48,764 nucleotides of DNA from a virus (taxonomy: Duplodnaviria; Caudoviricetes): positions 1-48,764 of the IMG/VR virus record IMGVR_UViG_3300048854_000069; one strand, 5' to 3'. Shown here in pieces: positions 6,321 to 46,400 of the stretch. The notes beneath the pieces were generated by a model. The model made no database searches, was not told the origin of the DNA, and saw only the letters and a program-made list of their open reading frames with translations. Every line of letters starts with the position of its first letter. Within the stretch, counting starts at the first letter, position 1. Made by a program: the position numbers and the translations under genes.

Positions 6321-7502
6321 CTACGTTTTTAATGCGACCAATTCTTCAGCCGTCTCTGCTGGAGATCGCTTCACGGAAAGAGTTCGCTTTAAGAAAACCT
6401 GAACGGGCCGCTCAAATGCAAAATGAATTCCAGAGGCAACGATTGATATAAAAATGAACTTTCCGATGTAATGCGGGATACCGTTACTCAAATCGATTCG
6501 GTTCCACATCTCCGATGCAGGAACATGAACAAGGTAGAACGCAAACGAAATTTCTCCTGCCGCGAACATAAATCTTGAGCCTAGAAATCTAACGAGAATT
6601 GACTTTTCTGCCATTGCAAGCGATAGGATAATTATCGCGAACGGAATGGCGTATGCAACGTCCCAACGGAATGCGATGTTGGTAACCGTTTGATGCGTCA
6701 TTAACCACACAATAAAAGCGCAAGCTGCCCACCTTAGAACTCGCCACCACCCCTGCTTCCCAGCGACATACTCAGGAAATCTTAGCGTGAAGAGTGCAGC
6801 AAAAATTCCCAACGAAAAGTCTCCGAGCCTGTTTATCGGCGATCTATAAATCCATCGATGCGAGGAGTTCGGGTCAGTGTATGGAAGCGATTTTAATAAG
6901 GTGAACACAATAGCCAGACAAAGCATCGCTAAAACGACAGCAGCTACGATCGCAAGCAGCTTTCTCGGCGATGCTGCGACGTTTAACTTATGTATCAAGA
7001 AGGCCATCAGCGGAAAAGAAGCGTACAAAAACATTTCTACGCTGATGCTCCAAGACGGACCGACGATACCAAAAGCGACACTTATGTCAGGCGACCATGC
7101 TTGCAGAGCGGCAACATACACGAACGGGACCGGGCTTATACCTTCCCACCAGCCAACCGCAAAAAGTATGAAAATGTAAATAGGATAAACCCTCGATAGC
7201 CTGCTAATGACAAAATTCCAAAGCGGGCGTATCCGGAGGTCCTTAAATGTGTCGAAGTAGTTATAAGCCAACACAAATCCAGATAAGACATAAAAGAACG
7301 TAACGCCTGAATATCCTGAGTTCTCAAACACATAGAAAGCGCCACCCACGCCTGGCACCGTCAAATGCGACAGAACTACCATCAGGCAAGCTACTGCTCT
7401 CAGCCCAGTGAGCGCTGGGATTTGCTTGCGCTTTGTGAGTGGTTCTATTGGATCTCGAATCGCTGCCGGCCCAAACAGTTGAAGCTCTCTCAGAATGCCC
7501 AA
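6321..7502 (-). CDS. Acyltransferase family 3 (OafA/Oac-like), probable O-antigen/surface polysaccharide O-acylase moron
   Basis: IPALTGLRAVACLMVVLSH, GVTFFYVLSGF, WSISVEMFLY and GEISFAFYLVH motifs; about 10 TM; visibly AT-richer than flanks; TTG start with GGAG RBS. Confidence 0.9.
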   Translation of the reverse strand: MGILRELQLFGPAAIRDPIEPLTKRKQIPALTGLRAVACLMVVLSHLTVPGVGGAFYVFENSGYSGVTFFYVLSGFVLAYNYFDTFKDLRIRPLWNFVISRLSRVYPIYIFILFAVGWWEGISPVPFVYVAALQAWSPDISVAFGIVGPSWSISVEMFLYASFPLMAFLIHKLNVAASPRKLLAIVAAVVLAMLCLAIVFTLLKSLPYTDPNSSHRWIYRSPINRLGDFSLGIFAALFTLRFPEYVAGKQGWWRVLRWAACAFIVWLMTHQTVTNIAFRWDVAYAIPFAIIILSLAMAEKSILVRFLGSRFMFAAGEISFAFYLVHVPASEMWNRIDLSNGIPHYIGKFIFISIVASGIHFAFERPVQVFLKRTLSVKRSPAETAEELVALKT

Positions 7503-9466: not shown

Positions 9467-10894
9467 TTAGCTGCTGATTCGCATCCATGCGATCGTCCCG
9501 ACTGGAATGACCGATGCCACCGCGGCATAGATGTCTGCATCCGAGACCGATGTTTGCACCATGTTTAGACTTGCATACTCACCGCGCGACGGAGTGCTGT
9601 AGCCTGATGGTGAAGACCCATAGCCAGCGACATACGGAATACCTGTTCCGATCGGGCGATACGCCGTCACGAATGCCTGGTACTGGTGAACCAGTGAACC
9701 GTACGCGCCCGCAACGCCATAGCCGCCGAGGTAGCCATACTTTGGCGCGACCGAAAAAGTCTTCGTGACACCATCGCCGACTGAGAAGTTGGCATTTGTG
9801 ACGGTGACATTCGCGCCTTTCTGCGTACTTGCATAGGTGCCAGACCACGACAGCGCAGCGCCAATAAGCGGAGCTGCCAAAAAGATGATCGAACCAGCAG
9901 CCGTGTACGAAAAATCTGTTGCTGTCGCTGGTCCTGTCGTTGTCGGAATGTACGACGTCACCGCATTTTGCTCAGCCTGCATTCCAAACAACGACAGCGT
10001 TCCGGGCCGATCGAGCGGCAAGATGGCAATTGAATCACCAGCCATTCCGCTAGGCTCGGTGAAAAGCATCGAGCACCGGTACCAGCCGTTCGGAAGCGGC
10101 TGTATTGCGGCGCTCGCACCGCCTGAAGTGCCAACAATTGCACCCGTGAACAGGTTGAACGTGGCGACCGCAGGTGGGCTAAGCTTGTCGTTAGTCAACT
10201 GGAACTGTGCGCCAACCGTGCCGGCCTTTGCAAAGATCGAATACGCCTGCGGCCCGACTGCGTTGTTCAGCAAGTAATACAGATTCCCGCCGGTGCTGGC
10301 CGTGAATGTGATCAGAGAGGCATTGTTCGATCCATCAGGCGCCGTGCCGGAGGTTGGCGTGATTGTTGTACCGAGATACAGCGAGAAGTTGTTGATCGAA
10401 GCCGCGTTGTTCGTCCGCGGTGTCGAATACAGTTGCTGCAGCCCCTGCCAATCGCTGCGAAATACCTGCGGCGTTCCAATAATCGTTATCGCATCAGTTC
10501 CGCCGTACCCGCCAGTGTCAGCGGCCCGCTTCGGCTCAATGATGACCGGCGCGCGGCCCGTCAGATCGATCAACACCTTCGTCACCGCCGCACGCGTCGC
10601 GCGCTCGCGGAACATGTTGATGATGATGCGGTTCAGAAACGACGTGTCGGTTTCGTTCGTCCTGCGTTGCAGGTTGGATCCGAAAAAGTCCGCTGCGATC
10701 ATGTCAAGCCAGCCGCCCGACGCCGTCTTGATCCGCGTCTGCAACTTGGCAAATACGATCAACGAATAAACGAACGCCAGCCCATGCGCGAAGCCTTGCA
10801 TCAGCGCGTCGACGAATGGCGGTGAATCGCCGAACCATCCTGGCGGCAAATAGCCGGTGAGCCGCTTATAAATGTCCTGCTGATCGCCGGTCAT
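9467..10894 (-). CDS. Baseplate wedge protein (gpI-like) with a probable inserted beta-rich domain
   Basis: WLDMIAADFFG...RR..ETD..F..RI motif; follows the gpJ-like gene. Confidence 0.75.
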   Translation of the reverse strand: MTGDQQDIYKRLTGYLPPGWFGDSPPFVDALMQGFAHGLAFVYSLIVFAKLQTRIKTASGGWLDMIAADFFGSNLQRRTNETDTSFLNRIIINMFRERATRAAVTKVLIDLTGRAPVIIEPKRAADTGGYGGTDAITIIGTPQVFRSDWQGLQQLYSTPRTNNAASINNFSLYLGTTITPTSGTAPDGSNNASLITFTASTGGNLYYLLNNAVGPQAYSIFAKAGTVGAQFQLTNDKLSPPAVATFNLFTGAIVGTSGGASAAIQPLPNGWYRCSMLFTEPSGMAGDSIAILPLDRPGTLSLFGMQAEQNAVTSYIPTTTGPATATDFSYTAAGSIIFLAAPLIGAALSWSGTYASTQKGANVTVTNANFSVGDGVTKTFSVAPKYGYLGGYGVAGAYGSLVHQYQAFVTAYRPIGTGIPYVAGYGSSPSGYSTPSRGEYASLNMVQTSVSDADIYAAVASVIPVGTIAWMRISS

Positions 10895-11625
10895 GTCTGC
10901 CTTATCGCATATCTGGATTTTGCTGCAATCGACAAACGAAGGCGATGCTCGTCAGTCAATGTTCGGCCTTTCAGTTTTTCGGAAACCGCTCGGTTGACTT
11001 CTGCCGACCGCGATCTCCCGCTGTTCGCTTCGCTCAACTTCCTAGCGTGCTCGGAACTTCTAGGTGGCTTCTTCTTGCCCTTGATCGCTGCCGAAATCTT
11101 CTCCCGGGTTTCTTGCGGGATCGTGAATCCGGTTTTGTAGGTGTCTGGCTTCTTTCTCACGTACCCAGCTTGCTGTTTTGCAAGTTTGGTAGCAAGCATC
11201 TTTGCGACGACTTCGGGAGGGCGCTTGCGACCTTTTAGAGGGTTGGCGCTATTCTTGAAACGCTCCTGCTGTGCGGCTCTCATACGTAGAATCGAAGCCA
11301 TCTCATGGGGGCGCCGTGTTCTGCCGTAACCTCCTTCGAGATGATTAGTCAGCCTGCATCCGATAAACCGGAAGTAAGCAATCCAGAATTGCTCCGACTC
11401 CTCCCAATCGCTTGTCACCGAATCGATAACGAAGGCTTCGGGCCGCAGCCCATCGGACAATAAACCGCAAATCCATCTTGCCGACATCGTGTGCGTTTTC
11501 TTTGCTGCGTTCACATGCACCGCAATTCGATTTGAAAGGGCCATCGTCGTTTTCCCAACGTAGCGAACGAAGCCGTCCCTTGGGTCGATCAGCCCATAGA
11601 TCGTGGTAACCTTGGCGTCAGCCAT
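10891..11625 (-). CDS. Free-standing GIY-YIG homing endonuclease with NUMOD3-type repeats
   Basis: TIYGLIDPRDGFVRYVGKT; basic repeats (ETREKISAAIKGK, EHARKLSEANSG); GAGGT RBS before ATG 11625. Confidence 0.85.
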   Translation of the reverse strand: MADAKVTTIYGLIDPRDGFVRYVGKTTMALSNRIAVHVNAAKKTHTMSARWICGLLSDGLRPEAFVIDSVTSDWEESEQFWIAYFRFIGCRLTNHLEGGYGRTRRPHEMASILRMRAAQQERFKNSANPLKGRKRPPEVVAKMLATKLAKQQAGYVRKKPDTYKTGFTIPQETREKISAAIKGKKKPPRSSEHARKLSEANSGRSRSAEVNRAVSEKLKGRTLTDEHRLRLSIAAKSRYAIRQT

Positions 11626-11653
11626 GCCACTTACCTCTGCATAGGTATAGGTT

Positions 11654-11705
11654 TGGTTAGAAGCCCCGATCGTGTTGATAGCACGCCGGGGCTTCGTCAA
11701 TTATA
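11654..11705 (-). promoter_or_regulatory. TATAAT box plus conserved hairpin leader of the GIY-YIG gene
   Basis: Minus strand TATAAT-TGAC-GAAGCCCCG...CGGGGCTTC-TAACCA; near-identical to 21843-21887. Confidence 0.7.
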
Positions 11706-21107: not shown

Positions 21108-21818
21108 CTACAGCAGAAAACCTAGCGACTGCATGAAATCGATCGGGTCTTTTGCATGCTTCGTTAAATTACATTTTGGACAAAGCAACTGCAGGTTCGA
21201 AGGGTCGTTTGTACCACCCTTCGAAAGCGCGGTCCGATGATCAATATGGAAATCAAATAGCTTCCCTTTGCAACATGCGCATCTACCGCGTTGCAGCGAT
21301 TTCAATCGCTCGACATCGTGCGGCGTAAATCTGCCTTCTGCGCATCGCTTCCTTGCCTTGTATGCGCGCTTGTGCATTGCGATCAACGGCCTATTCGCCC
21401 TCTCCCACACCATCCTTTTGGATCGCAAAACGTCTTGGTTCGCAGCTCGATATTCGCGCATAGCGGTCAATCTAACTGAGCGATTTTTCCAATAGTCACG
21501 CATTGACCATTCAAGGCGTTTCTCGGGATTGGCTTTTCGATAACGATCGTTTGCCGCCTTCGCAGCCTCCGGACTGTTTTCTCGATACCGTTTTGCCCTG
21601 TCCCGAACCTTTTCAGGATTCGCTTGCGCCCATGCCTTAGCCTGAGCCGCGCGCTTATCACGATTCTTCGCGTGATGTTCTGAATTGCTCTTGCTTTTGC
21701 AAGCCCGACACCACGGATTCAACCCATCGCTTCTGTGATTTTGCGCCCCGAAAGAGCTTACATGCTGTTCAATCCGGCATTTGCTGCATATCTTGGTGAT
21801 ACCATTGGCAACAGCCAT
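21108..21818 (-). CDS. Free-standing HNH endonuclease
   Basis: CACC...HIDH...GGTNDPSNLQLLC..CN..K; N-terminal CxxC pairs and basic helical repeats. Confidence 0.9.
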   Translation of the reverse strand: MAVANGITKICSKCRIEQHVSSFGAQNHRSDGLNPWCRACKSKSNSEHHAKNRDKRAAQAKAWAQANPEKVRDRAKRYRENSPEAAKAANDRYRKANPEKRLEWSMRDYWKNRSVRLTAMREYRAANQDVLRSKRMVWERANRPLIAMHKRAYKARKRCAEGRFTPHDVERLKSLQRGRCACCKGKLFDFHIDHRTALSKGGTNDPSNLQLLCPKCNLTKHAKDPIDFMQSLGFLL

Positions 21819-23931: not shown

Positions 23932-23955
23932 TAAAAAAGCGCCCGCAGGCGCTTA
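23932..23955 (-). terminator. Terminator after the second HNH gene, fused to the next RBS
   Basis: AAGCGCC-TGCG-GGCGCTT-TTTTATTGGAG. Confidence 0.8.
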
Positions 23956-24579
23956 TTCGTGTCTGTTGCTCTTGCGGACATTGTCCGCGCCCGGTATCGC
24001 TTGCAGGTTCCATGGAACATGCAGCCCACAAACTCGCTTGCCCTGCAACGGCACCACGTGATCGACGTGATGCTGAATGCCGGTTAATGTCGTGAGCGTT
24101 ATCGCTTTCCGATAAACCGCTTCGATCTCTGTATGATGGTCAAGCGTCAACCATGCGGGCATCGCTCGAAGTTCGGCTGCTCGGCGCTTGGCATCGTGCG
24201 CATTTTTTCTGTCTCGGTTGTTGGCTGCCCATTCCCGAGAAATCTCAGTGATACGCGATTTGTTATTCGCATTCCACTTCAGACAGTAAGCACGCGCCTT
24301 ATCACGATTAGCCTCTTGCCACGCCCGAAACTTATCGCGCTTCAGTTTTCTGTCCGCCTCAGACAACGAAGCGTATTGCCTGGCTTTTGTCTTTCGGTTC
24401 GATTCCGCGCACGCGAGAGGATTTTCGGCTTTCCATCGTGCCGATTTCATCCGTTCGCAATCACAACAGCATTGATTGCTTGTCCGTCGCTTTGCAACAT
24501 GCCCATATTTACATGGTACGCCGGTGAAGTAGTGGGCAGACTTGGCTTTGACTGCCTGCGAATAAGACTCTGGAAGCAT
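23953..24579 (-). CDS. Free-standing HNH endonuclease
   Basis: YFTG.PCK.GH...R.....C..C N-terminus; HVDHVVPLQG..VCGLHVPWNLQ......N..KSN. Confidence 0.9.
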   Translation of the reverse strand: MLPESYSQAVKAKSAHYFTGVPCKYGHVAKRRTSNQCCCDCERMKSARWKAENPLACAESNRKTKARQYASLSEADRKLKRDKFRAWQEANRDKARAYCLKWNANNKSRITEISREWAANNRDRKNAHDAKRRAAELRAMPAWLTLDHHTEIEAVYRKAITLTTLTGIQHHVDHVVPLQGKRVCGLHVPWNLQAIPGADNVRKSNRHE

Positions 24580-42754: not shown

Positions 42755-42838
42755 TTTCCCGAGGTTTCCGGTGATCCATAGCGTGCGCTTGCGTGCGCCA
42801 AAACCGGCCAAACTTATTTTCGAGTAGTATCAAAAATA

Positions 42839-42880
42839 ATCGCAAATGTACTTGCATTGCATGAGTACATTTGCAATACT
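42839..42880 (+). promoter_or_regulatory. Second early promoter pL2 with two repressor operators
   Basis: TTGCAT-N17-AATACT; ATCGCAAATGTACT (42839) and AGTACATTTGCAAT (42864); same layout as pL1. Confidence 0.8.
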
Positions 42881-42927
42881 TCTCTACATGCACTCAGCCA
42901 CGGTGGCGAGACGAAACGGGAAAAGAA

Positions 42928-43077
42928 ATGAACCGCGCTCAATGCGACAACGATCTGCTTCAAGCGTGCGACCAAATACATGCAAAGACCGCTGTTGCTG
43001 CGGTTATCACTTTAGTAGGCGTGGGCTTTATCTGGTTCTTGTGCGTGGCGATACCAGCGGGAGCTCTTTGGAAATGA
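42928..43077 (+). CDS. Small TM protein
   Basis: MNRAQCDNDLL...single TM; ATGA overlap with the next ORF. Confidence 0.6.
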   Translation: MNRAQCDNDLLQACDQIHAKTAVAAVITLVGVGFIWFLCVAIPAGALWK

Positions 43078-43196
43078 AGCTTTGGCAAATCTGGGCAATC
43101 ACATTTTTAGTCGGCAGCGCGTACCTGATTCTGTGCGCTGAGATTGATTACCGTGCAGCGCGGTCCGAACGCTGTTCCGTTATGCACTGCACTTAA
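43074..43196 (+). CDS. Small TM protein (40 aa)
   Basis: MKLWQIWAITFLVGSAYLILC... Confidence 0.55.
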   Translation: MKLWQIWAITFLVGSAYLILCAEIDYRAARSERCSVMHCT

Positions 43197-43218
43197 CTGC
43201 TCCCGAAAAGGCTCACCC

Positions 43219-43377
43219 ATGAACACACTTCACTTCGCACTCCTTCTCTGGGCATTCGCAGCAACGGCGGTTGTTCTGTTCATCTACGGCGCCGCGATTG
43301 ATGACGGCGGCCACAAGGCACGGCGCGAAGCGGAACAGCGGGACGCCTGGGCGGATCGGATTGCGGCAGGTCAGTAA
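43219..43377 (+). CDS. Small TM protein
   Basis: MNTLHFALLLWAFAATAVVLFIYGA... Confidence 0.6.
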   Translation: MNTLHFALLLWAFAATAVVLFIYGAAIDDGGHKARREAEQRDAWADRIAAGQ

Positions 43378-43472
43378 CGAAGCATCTCCGAATTGATAAC
43401 TGGCCCCGGCTTAACCGGGATGGTGACTCAAGCAGGAGGCGTTATGCAAATGGCGGGAGAAAGCCCCGCAAA

Positions 43473-43524
43473 GATCGAAACCGCTGTGAAGCGGTCTTCC
43501 GGTAGAGCCGGAACTGACGAGATC
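43473..43524 (+). ncRNA. Hammerhead ribozyme, type II topology
   Basis: GATC-GAAA-CCGC(TGTGAA)GCGG-TC^-TTCCGG(TAGAG)CCGGAA-CTGACGA-GATC: all core nucleotides (CUGANGA, GAAA, GUC triplet) and three perfectly paired stems. Confidence 0.9.
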
Positions 43525-43554
43525 GTATCCAACTAACTTCGAGGAGTTACCAAC

Positions 43555-44034
43555 ATGTTTCGCAAAGCAATCGCAGTAGCAGCATTCGCAGTCGTGTTTG
43601 TCGGTCATGCCCAGGCATCGGGCATCGAAGGTGGTGTTGTGGTCGGCGCCGGCGCATCGGCATTCGGCGGCAGCGTGTCCGGTTCTGCATCGAGCATCAG
43701 CAACGGCAACGCGGTAACGGCTGCGCAAGTCGGCGGCACGGGCAAGTCGTTTCAGTCGGCCAACGGTTCGACGGGCGGCACGGCAACCATCGGTGGCACG
43801 GTGAACGCTGGCGGCGCCACGGTCGGCACGAGCACCACGCAGTACAGCAATTCGGCAGTCACGGGTCACGCAGTTGGAAATGCGCCGACGAATGTCGGTG
43901 ATTCGATCGCGAACGGCGGCGCAGCGTATGGCAACACGACCACGGGCGCAGTCGGTACGGCTCAGTTCGCTACCGGTGCAATCGGCGCAGTGGCAGGCAT
44001 TGGCGGTATCGCAGCAATCAACTACGTCCACTAA
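43555..44034 (+). CDS. Secreted Gly/Ala/Ser/Thr-rich protein
   Basis: Sec signal ending AQA; GAGGAG RBS; low-complexity beta-prone mature region with no Cys. Confidence 0.8.
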   Translation: MFRKAIAVAAFAVVFVGHAQASGIEGGVVVGAGASAFGGSVSGSASSISNGNAVTAAQVGGTGKSFQSANGSTGGTATIGGTVNAGGATVGTSTTQYSNSAVTGHAVGNAPTNVGDSIANGGAAYGNTTTGAVGTAQFATGAIGAVAGIGGIAAINYVH

Positions 44035-44099
44035 GCAGCGGACATCCGATCAACAAGGTGCAGGCCGGCTGGAACCCGGCCTGTTCCCCGGAGCCAAAA

Positions 44100-44633
44100 A
44101 TGAAAACGACTTTCATCGCCCTCATCGTTTCGCTCTTCGCAGCTAGCTCTGCGATGGCTGAAGTTTCCAGCAATGCCACGAATACGTCAACCACGGCTTC
44201 GACAGCCGGCGCGACCAACGCAGGGAACGCGCAAAACCTCGCACTGAACAGCTATGCACCCGGCAGCCAGACAATTCGCACGACCGGCAATGCGGTTGTG
44301 AGCGGCTTTGCGGGTTCGTTCTCATCCGATTACTGCGGCGGCACGATGGGCGGCTCGGTCGGCGCACCCGGCGTCGCGCTCGCATTCGGCGGCCCGAAGA
44401 TAGATCAATCGTGCGTGATGCTTCGCACCTTCGAGCGCGTCCAGCAAGCAGCCGTCGCCGATCCAGCAAACGCACGCGAGCTGCGCAACGCCGCGCTCGA
44501 CATCCTGGCTGAGATCGATCCGAAGATTCGCGCCATCTTCGTGAAGCACAACCTAGTTGACGGCGAGCCGACGGCGACAGCGATCACAACGAATTCCAGC
44601 GGGCAGCAAGTGTACGCGACCGCTCAACCCTGA
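44100..44633 (+). CDS. Secreted protein with Ser/Thr/Asn-rich N-terminus and Cys-flanked Gly-rich hairpin
   Basis: Signal ending AMA; DYCGGTMGGSVGAPGVALAFGGPKIDQSC; GGAG RBS. Confidence 0.8.
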   Translation: MKTTFIALIVSLFAASSAMAEVSSNATNTSTTASTAGATNAGNAQNLALNSYAPGSQTIRTTGNAVVSGFAGSFSSDYCGGTMGGSVGAPGVALAFGGPKIDQSCVMLRTFERVQQAAVADPANARELRNAALDILAEIDPKIRAIFVKHNLVDGEPTATAITTNSSGQQVYATAQP

Positions 44634-44641
44634 GAGACATC

Positions 44642-45289
44642 ATGCCGAACCACATCACGAACAAGATCAAAGCACCGACGCATGTTATCGCGGCCCTTGT
44701 CAACGAAAAGGGCGACGTGGATTTTCGCCGTGTCATCGACTTTACTGGCGAATTCCCGTTCAACGGCGTGAGCATGGCCGCCGAAACAATCGCTGAAAGC
44801 GTTGTCGGTAAGGGCTTGAGTGACTTTGAACCGTTGGCGGCGCTGCAGGCACACAGCCGCGCTAAGACGAAGATTCAGGATCTCACCGACGAATGTTTTG
44901 AGCAGTTCGTGCAAATGCTGCGCAACTTCCGCAAGTGCGGTGTTTTCCACAATATGGATTTTGCCCGCGAGCAATGGGGAACGAAGTGGAACGCCTACGA
45001 GTGCGAGGTCGACATCGAGGCCGGGACCGCAAAGTTCAACACCGCATGGAGCTGCCCAGAGCCGGTGCTCGAAAAGCTTTCGCGTCAATTCCCCGTCGAT
45101 TTGATTGAAGTTACTTTCGCCGACGAAGACATCGGCAGCAACTGCGGAACGTTCACGCTGAAGAACGGCGAAACGGTTGCATCCGACATCGCTCCGTCGT
45201 GGAGCAACCAGAGCGATGCAGAGAAAGCTAAGTGGCGAGCCTTTGCCTACGACGTCAAGGGTTGGACGCCCGACGAAGACGAAGAGTGA
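44642..45289 (+). CDS. DUF1281/YubB-like ferredoxin-fold protein
   Basis: MPNH..N, WGTKWNA, F.TAWS.P and ADED.G.NCG motifs. Confidence 0.7.
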   Translation: MPNHITNKIKAPTHVIAALVNEKGDVDFRRVIDFTGEFPFNGVSMAAETIAESVVGKGLSDFEPLAALQAHSRAKTKIQDLTDECFEQFVQMLRNFRKCGVFHNMDFAREQWGTKWNAYECEVDIEAGTAKFNTAWSCPEPVLEKLSRQFPVDLIEVTFADEDIGSNCGTFTLKNGETVASDIAPSWSNQSDAEKAKWRAFAYDVKGWTPDEDEE

Positions 45290-45729: not shown

Positions 45730-46143
45730 ATGAAGCTGAGCGAGAACGCAATTCAATGGCTGGCGAACGGTGAGCGCGGGCTTAGCAGCGAAACGATCTT
45801 TGCGACGATCACGGGGATGAAAGTTGGCGACTACCCAGACAAATCGCATCCGTATGACCCTGGTGACCTTCGCCGGTGCAGGTTGTTGCTTGATGCATGC
45901 CCTGAGATTGCTGAACGCCTGTCGCTGATGGCGCTCGTTTCGTCAGCATGGGCCGCGCTAACACCGCGCTGGCAAGAGCTCTGTGCAGTGATGGACGAGG
46001 AAACGCCGAACTGGCGCACACCCAGCCGATTTGACACCGCGCCAAGACCGTACGACGCAAGACGCGCCCGACGCACACCGGAAACATCGATTCCGCGCAC
46101 TACGTTTCTGAAGACGGCGGCCCGCGCCTGGTGCGCAGCGTAA
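45730..46143 (+). CDS. Conserved phage protein whose C-terminus runs out of frame into a methylase remnant
   Basis: WL..GE.G.SS, P.DP.DL.RC..LL motifs; the sequence after about 46041 belongs to the methylase frame. Confidence 0.6.
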   Translation: MKLSENAIQWLANGERGLSSETIFATITGMKVGDYPDKSHPYDPGDLRRCRLLLDACPEIAERLSLMALVSSAWAALTPRWQELCAVMDEETPNWRTPSRFDTAPRPYDARRARRTPETSIPRTTFLKTAARAWCAA

Positions 46144-46400
46144 TCGATGTCAGCAACGAACACGGCAAAGCGTTTCACCCGACCCAAAAGCCGCTGGGCA
46201 TTCTGGCGCCGCTGATTGAGTACTCGGTTCCGCGCGGCGGGATCGTGCTGGACCCGTTCCTTGGAAGCGGATCGACCGGTATCGCCGCGAAGCTGCTTGG
46301 GCGCCATTACATCGGCTGCGAGCTGGACCCTGCGTGCGTGCAGATGCAGGAAGCGCGGACACGCCAGCCAGGCCTGATGTTGGAGCAAGCGTGTTCCTAG
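46035..46400 (+). pseudogene. 5'-truncated N6/N4 DNA methyltransferase (beta class) remnant
   Basis: HPTQKP...LI..S...G..VLDPFLGSGST..A; in-frame stop at 46032; catalytic DPPY half absent. Confidence 0.75.

Follow-up and report, generated by a model that had tools for sequence, protein, structure and literature searches.

In the portion cited here, Perreault et al. (2011, PMC3088659) report that type II hammerhead ribozymes are common in prophages, are located next to variable genes and may have a role in processing the mRNAs of phages. Pelagimyophages carry a partial curli operon, and the idea of a phage-borne fibre acting in 'sibling capture' is presented as a hypothesis in the excerpt used of that source (PMC7029224). 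F-ENA, a spore system of Firmicutes, is described in the excerpt used of PMC12357932 as a chaperone-free β fibre with an adjacent anchor gene, F-Anchor.

Here we describe a phage locus in which a predicted hammerhead precedes two adjacent genes, ORF1 and ORF2, for exported-type proteins (Table 1). The window, which is the whole stretch of viral DNA that was analysed (48,764 nucleotides, or 48.8 kb), is a complete virus record with direct terminal repeats. It encodes an integrase, a repressor-like protein, replication proteins and head and tail proteins of myovirus type, and the locus sits in an early arm that runs rightward and also encodes RecT and an exonuclease. A preliminary description of this DNA had taken the setting for a lytic early operon; the integrase and repressor instead identify the record as a temperate phage. 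The nearest named relatives of ORF1 and ORF2 both come from Paraburkholderia and Caballeronia.

Table 1 Features of the locus, with positions in the window
Feature	Positions	Strand	Basis or detail
Structured leader: long imperfect hairpin plus 5-bp hairpin (43453–43469) directly 5′ of the ribozyme; variable	43378..43469	+	Folding
Type II hammerhead ribozyme (predicted)	43473..43524	+	Full core, three stems, RF02276 match
Weak 6-bp hairpin over the GAGGAG RBS (43541–43546)	43534..43549	+	TAACTT 43534–43539 / GAGTTA 43544–43549
ORF1, 159 aa, exported-type small-residue β protein, likely major subunit	43555..44034	+	Composition, homologues, low-confidence AF2 model
GC-rich intergenic hairpin without a U tail	44060..44084	+	CAGGCCGG 44061–44068 / CCGGCCTG 44076–44083
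ORF2, 177 aa, exported-type, S/T/N arm, Cys79–Cys105 β-hairpin, three helices; likely anchor or cap	44100..44633	+	Homologues, AF2 model

The window hammerhead shares its topology, its complete core and its location immediately ahead of a gene on a phage transcript with the prophage hammerheads of RF02276, as these are described in the portion of the literature cited above. It differs from them in a score below the gathering threshold, in having no clear pseudoknot between loop I and the tail, and in the export-like character of the downstream gene. Like curli (CsgA/CsgB with CsgG/CsgF), as far as the cited excerpt covers that system, the pair combines an exported, polar, low-complexity subunit with a partner. 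Unlike curli, it has no curlin repeat match and no CsgG, its subunit is predicted to be a long-strand meander rather than a short-repeat solenoid, and ORF2 carries a disulfide hairpin and helices. Curli membership was rejected, given that no curlin repeat was matched and that no CsgG gene, which was detected as a positive control in 4 of 14 genomes, is found in this complete record. The layout of a fibre gene with an adjacent anchor gene, which is a proposal for the window, is shared with F-ENA as described in the excerpt used, and F-ENA-2 is among the ORF1 fold rows at a background-level Z of 2.1; the window pair differs in having no DUF4183 or collagen match. By analogy, the pair would work like curli or F-ENA, as a subunit plus an anchor, yet it fails the defining sequence tests of both.

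A conserved pair of genes for exported-type proteins

Loci were taken from viral, genome and metagenome contigs (50), from isolated Achromobacter phages (4) and from a sample of 401 genomes (29), where 43 of the 396 genomes scored have an ORF2 match. ORF2 is matched at 80 loci; the 68 with at least 650 nt upstream were counted, and 12 lacking upstream DNA were dropped. An ORF1-type gene was recognized by a filter, set after a first view of the loci, that specifies an export-like start, at least 55% small residues and an end no more than 500 nt upstream of ORF2. Such a gene precedes ORF2 at 62 of the 68 loci and in 33 of 36 clusters formed at 85% identity, compared with 10 of 862 control ORFs. 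Of the three clusters that fail the filter, two can be seen to carry an ORF1-type gene, and the third, L040, has none. A single cluster with an intervening 93-aa gene supplies 14 of the 62 paired loci, and the named members of that gene's own cluster are Burkholderia cepacia-complex proteins. The preliminary description had proposed a two-component exported system that it could not assign to a known one, and this reading is supported by the recurrence of the pair and by the lack of a match to any characterized family. Judged by sequence comparison, ORF1–ORF2 is a real, conserved and unnamed cassette whose products are of exported type. No description of the pair was found in open-access literature, a weak negative given that word searches of main text were used for unnamed proteins.

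The upstream proteins are diverse. One of eight groups aligns confidently to the window ORF1 profile (probability 93.9) and another does so weakly, and most ORF1 groups are not demonstrably homologous by such alignments. Partner ORF1s keep an export-type start and low charge even where they cannot be aligned.

The pair is present in temperate phages, lytic phages and betaproteobacterial chromosomes. At locus L008 it follows RecT-YqaJ, as in the window, and elsewhere it precedes terminase or lies amid tRNA genes or next to housekeeping genes; the chromosomal copies adjoin serS/panD or the tuf-rpsJ cluster, and some copies adjoin terminase, portal or capsid genes. No accessory gene recurs among the neighbours scanned. 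On an ORF2 tree of 42 rows, of which 21 were labelled as phage and 8 as chromosome, three changes of label are needed, two of them forced by well-supported branches, so transfer of the cassette between phages and hosts, in either direction, has probably occurred on more than one occasion.

The 8-bp hairpin previously noted between the two genes is present, and a comparable hairpin recurs in other spacers, with z < −2 in 17 of 24 ORF1–ORF2 spacers tested, mostly without a U tail; the window spacer itself has a z of −1.3. The hairpin is likely to be a 3′ stabilizer or an attenuator that favours ORF1. Promoter and terminator calling gave none for the cassette.

ORF1 is a small-residue protein with predicted long strands

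ORF1 had been described as nearly all G/A/S/T/V/N without cysteine, and the count agrees, with 126 of 159 residues (79%) from this set, no Cys and three charged residues past position 21. Signal peptides were judged by eye and with a crude script filter; on this basis the ORF1 start is AxA-type (Sec-type). ORF1 has 14 homologues and no Pfam match at E ≤ 0.1, and six partner ORF1s from other loci have none at 0.05. The C-terminal residue is aromatic in many ORF1s.

An AF2 model of low confidence (pLDDT 49, pTM 0.31) contains four antiparallel 23-residue strands (37–59, 61–83, 88–110 and 118–140), with hydrophobic ends left unmodelled. Covariation among 32 sequences (effective depth 18) peaks at i + j = 171 for strands 2 and 3 (z 3.2), an antiparallel register previously read from the size pattern. 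For strands 3 and 4 the peak is at 226 (z 2.7) versus 228 expected, and no register was found for strands 1 and 2.

Conserved small residues occupy 16 of 39 columns on one strand face versus 3 of 35 on the other, which is polar and variable; the two faces were picked after the conservation columns had been viewed, so this contrast is not an independent test. Large hydrophobic residues are sparse on both faces (0.20 and 0.18). Lipid-facing barrel surfaces are hydrophobic and variable, and because the ORF1 strands have no face of this kind they read as a dry core of protein whose outer side faces water. In the model, this pattern fits a fibre or tube better than a pore. Fold matches to the same pLDDT 49 model are weak and at background level (Z ≤ 3.5), mostly to β-barrel pores; the best match to a solved pore has Z 3.5 and an rmsd of 4.0 over 74 residues.

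ORF2 carries a predicted hairpin between invariant cysteines

The second protein begins at the ATG at 44100 and has 73 close homologues, with 337 cluster representatives at E ≤ 0.001. The S/T/N arm and Cys-bounded β-hairpin attributed to it earlier are both present, and C79 and C105 are invariant in 124 of 124 aligned sequences. An AF2 model places a β-hairpin (80–101) between these cysteines and three confident helices within 103–149, and the arm is unstructured when ORF2 is modelled alone (pLDDT < 50). In each strand of the hairpin, some 10 residues alternate between A/V/F/L and G/S/A, as they do in pore stems.

Searches with these proteins and models returned few leads. The ORF2 model has no PDB match by Foldseek at E ≤ 0.001, a best VIA Z of 5.0 that reflects generic helices and is uninformative, and matches to uncharacterized proteins only among viral models; apart from DUF6322 (0.89), which is a lead, the ESM Atlas gave nothing but clusters without names. 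There is no ORF2 match in plasmids. The window proteins have no informative match in Pfam, NCBIfam, PADLOC or PHROGs, and their best sequence matches in the PDB have E values of 0.17 and 0.12. The uncharacterized family phrog_20531 (PHROGs v4, RSP15 ORF122) is matched by 5 of 10 ORF2 relatives tested, including phiAxp-2 orf51 (E 1.4e-5) and L195 (E 1.3e-21), whereas the window's own ORF2 does not match it at E ≤ 0.001. The two share the Cys-hairpin-Cys-helix domain, and differ in that the RSP15 protein has a fused Gly/Asn/Gln tract and no ORF1 upstream.

Eighteen phage records match the RSP15 domain, and four more of these were examined. In Ralstonia phages RSP15 and RSL1, a long Gly/Asn/Gln tract is followed by the ORF2 domain within one protein, and no ORF1 lies before it. 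In Pelagibacter phages Mosig, HTVC023P and HTVC033P, the ORF2 domain precedes an exported-type protein of 461–611 aa, one of which is annotated as carbohydrate-binding. None of these five loci (RSP15, RSL1 and the three from Pelagibacter phages) is among the 80 counted above, and all five depart from the ORF1 rule. The ORF2 profile matches the RSL1 and pelagiphage forms with E values from 7e-9 to 2e-16. The association of ORF2 with other exported cargoes, or with a fused Gly/Asn/Gln tract, suggests that it is a generic anchor or base for exported cargo. No curli operon is annotated next to the pelagiphage homologues in the stretches examined. The large exported-type partner in the Pelagibacter phages (L255–L258) ends in a coiled-coil-like tail.

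A predicted hammerhead ribozyme precedes the pair in one lineage

A hammerhead had been reported ahead of the first exported-type gene, and a full type II core is present there, with CUGANGA, GAAA and UH all in type II order. From 5′ to 3′, the parts are GATC (43473–43476), GAAA (43477–43480), stem III with a GTGA loop (43480–43495), stem I (43497–43513), CTGACGA (43514–43520) and GATC (43521–43524). Three stems close the core (I, 6–7 bp; II, 4 bp; III, 6 bp), and cleavage is predicted at a GUC site after C43496, which would leave 58 nt 5′ of the ORF1 start. The RF02276 model gives 30.1 bits (E 0.0019), under its gathering score of 37, and an Rfam scan at the gathering threshold returned no match. 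In a pairing-aware type II scan this is the sole match of the window, and 40 resampled windows gave none. A putative pseudoknot between loop I and the 3′ tail amounts to 3 bp by script with a 7-bp stem I; judged by eye, 4 bp would be possible were stem I to open to 4 bp. The predicted ribozyme is a further example of the known type II hammerheads and is ordinary in itself.

With the window as positive control, no hammerhead of any topology was found within 1300 nt upstream of ORF2 at the 66 other loci with enough DNA (0/66), and no ribozyme emerged when ten near loci were scanned permissively against Rfam. The same hammerhead pattern is frequent in viral contigs, with 125 loci in the 10 of 64 parts scanned and about 880 estimated in all, and none of the 125 has ORF1 or ORF2 nearby within the DNA retrieved. 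A gene start lies within 60 nt in 94 of 110 cases, and the downstream gene is export-like in 4 of 110 and not in the other 106. The frequency of viral hammerheads, mostly near gene starts, agrees with the portion of PMC3088659 cited.

Six public sequencing runs (X2–X7) were compared over the region. Contigs from X3 and X5 keep both leader and ribozyme. In X4 and X6, positions 43472–43539 are kept (differences inside the ribozyme being listed in part), the leader is swapped and the signal-coding stretch has diverged. X7 contributes the 3′ tail only, and X2 an identical fragment plus a contig with a different leader. No RNA data set is listed among the sequencing runs that contain this sequence. 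The ribozyme thus persists in four near-identical relatives (X3–X6) while its flanks change, which argues that it is selected in this lineage and optional in the family. As an obligate part of the module it was rejected, both by the distant loci and by the similar hammerheads counted above. Of the suggested co-occurrence of both ORFs with an upstream hammerhead, the gene pair holds, and the ribozyme is restricted to near-identical kin. The predicted hammerhead is, on this comparison, a lineage-level add-on.

The leader folds at −33.4 kcal/mol, which 7 of 200 shuffles equal; a 19-mer from it has no exact match in viral contigs, and its DNA has no match in annotated phages. The hairpin said to occlude the RBS has the complementarity claimed for it, and its stability (−2.6 kcal/mol) is no better than chance, as 130 of 200 shuffles fold as well. 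A role for it as a switch was rejected, the fold being marginal and altered in two relatives (X3 and X5).

Other elements occupy the region upstream of the pair elsewhere. In L008 and L182, the two closest named-type prophage relatives, a different structured RNA fills the same slot before ORF1 (L008:5236–5405; L182:630–780), consisting of a closing stem, a pair of fixed hairpins whose loops are complementary, and an insert that varies. It has no convincing Rfam match (a weak isrK row, 22 bits), and we presume that it resembles the C4/CI-type phage RNAs. Its 23-nt core recurs in 38 viral stretches (L216–L253), none with ORF1 or ORF2 within 600 nt. As read by eye, a consensus promoter immediately precedes the pair at several other loci, and four from unrelated phages (L006, L176, L178 and L179) share a short hairpin motif just upstream of ORF1.

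Proposed mechanism and alternatives

Our preferred reading, to which we give a probability of roughly 45%, is that ORF1 and ORF2 are likely exported and form an envelope or surface fibre, with ORF1 as the predicted abundant, β-rich subunit and ORF2 as the predicted anchor or nucleating cap, and that the hammerhead, as a lineage add-on, likely cleaves the early transcript and so gives the pair its own mRNA end. Both proteins would cross the inner membrane by Sec. The four long ORF1 strands would pack through their Gly/Ala/Ser/Thr face, burying Gln67, Gln96 and Asn120, and build a narrow oligomeric barrel lengthened through the hydrophobic end segments. ORF2 would oligomerize and place its disulfide-closed amphipathic hairpin in or on the membrane, where its unstructured arm would template ORF1. 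The intergenic hairpin would leave ORF1 message in excess. Cleavage after C43496 would yield a 5′-OH and a hairpin-capped 58-nt leader, stabilizing the message; RNA ends of this kind resist RNase E. The phage would gain a sticky or shielded host surface. Because no channel gene travels with the pair, passage across the outer membrane is the weakest link, and ORF2 itself may serve as the route.

An extension of the fibre reading, which we regard as doubtful, makes ORF2 the prototype of an undescribed and widespread kind of minimal surface display. A ring of disulfide hairpins in the outer membrane would export and anchor interchangeable cargoes, whether a β-tube fibre, a stalk formed by a fused Gly/Asn/Gln tract or a protein that binds carbohydrate. 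In phages ranging from SAR11 podoviruses to Ralstonia jumbo phages, it would serve to make infected cells adhere to new hosts or withstand rivals, and the ribozyme-made mRNA end would boost it in this lineage.

The pair might instead be a membrane channel, with ORF1 strands or ORF2 hairpins building a β-barrel pore for uptake or phage exclusion. The pore-stem-like alternation in the ORF2 hairpin, where a hydrophobic face is plausible, the aromatic C-terminal residue of many ORF1s and the top weak ORF1 fold matches to complement, gasdermin-like and lysenin pores (Z 3.5–2.9) all point this way. The long ORF1 strands, however, have no lipid-facing face, the fold scores are at background, and the fused Gly/Asn/Gln-tract forms better suit a fibre or stalk, so that we consider a pore unlikely. 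Exported phage accessory proteins often serve superinfection exclusion, and a complex in the periplasm or outer membrane that does not polymerize, and that either hides a receptor or keeps DNA from entering, would suit the occurrence of the pair in early or accessory regions of unrelated phages, several with the promoter noted above. Such a complex appears rather improbable given the housekeeping chromosome contexts, the phages of widely differing hosts and types, and the lack of a PADLOC match.

We give very little credence to the two remaining alternatives. That ORF1 is a microcin-like toxin, with ORF2 as partner or immunity protein, is in keeping with the small, Gly/Ser/Ala-rich, exported-type ORF1 and a lactococcin 972 fold match (Z 2.9). 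Class II microcins, however, have a double-glycine leader and a dedicated ABC exporter, whereas ORF1 starts with an AxA-type, Sec-type sequence and no ABC exporter recurs among the neighbours scanned, and microcin membership was rejected on these grounds; ORF2 is also better conserved than ORF1 and found without it. Placement of the proteins on the virion, as accessory fibres or decoration, would explain why some copies adjoin terminase, portal or capsid genes, and is opposed by the export-type starts, by a variable position that is often distant from structural genes and by the chromosomal copies. The phiAxp-2 paper does not mention mass spectrometry. Among the three options of the preliminary description, a fibre with its anchor therefore fits best, though not as a member of curli, a pore less well and a microcin poorly.

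If the fibre reading is true, the locus represents a two-gene fibre system with no named family, common to temperate phages, lytic phages and betaproteobacterial chromosomes, and the proposal that infected cells become attached to new hosts through phage action would be testable with the isolated phages phiAxp-2, vB_Ade_ART, RSL1 and HTVC023P. The locus also offers a clean test of the role of phage hammerheads, because kin carry the same genes with and without the ribozyme.

Other observations in the phage genome

Immediately 5′ of the leader, positions 42930–43377 hold three tiny hydrophobic ORFs (48, 40 and 52 aa) with no family match, which are swapped for other DNA in run X5. Further upstream, the AT-rich intergenic stretch 42836–42890 contains three TTGCA copies and a sub-threshold promoter-like spacing (42852–42880) that was not called as a promoter; it may be the promoter or operator for the small genes and the cassette. 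On the other side, the gene at 44642–45289 (DUF1281_C / phrog_12644) is an insertion missing from relatives X4 and X5, which marks the cassette boundary. At 45730–46400, a methyltransferase C-terminal half (46131–46400) has no in-frame N-terminal half, so the gene appears truncated. An O-acetyltransferase gene adjoining the tail-fibre genes (6324–7502, minus strand) is a possible serotype-conversion gene, and three homing or endonuclease VII-like genes (10894–11700, 21108–21818 and 23953–24579, minus strand) lie amid the structural genes.
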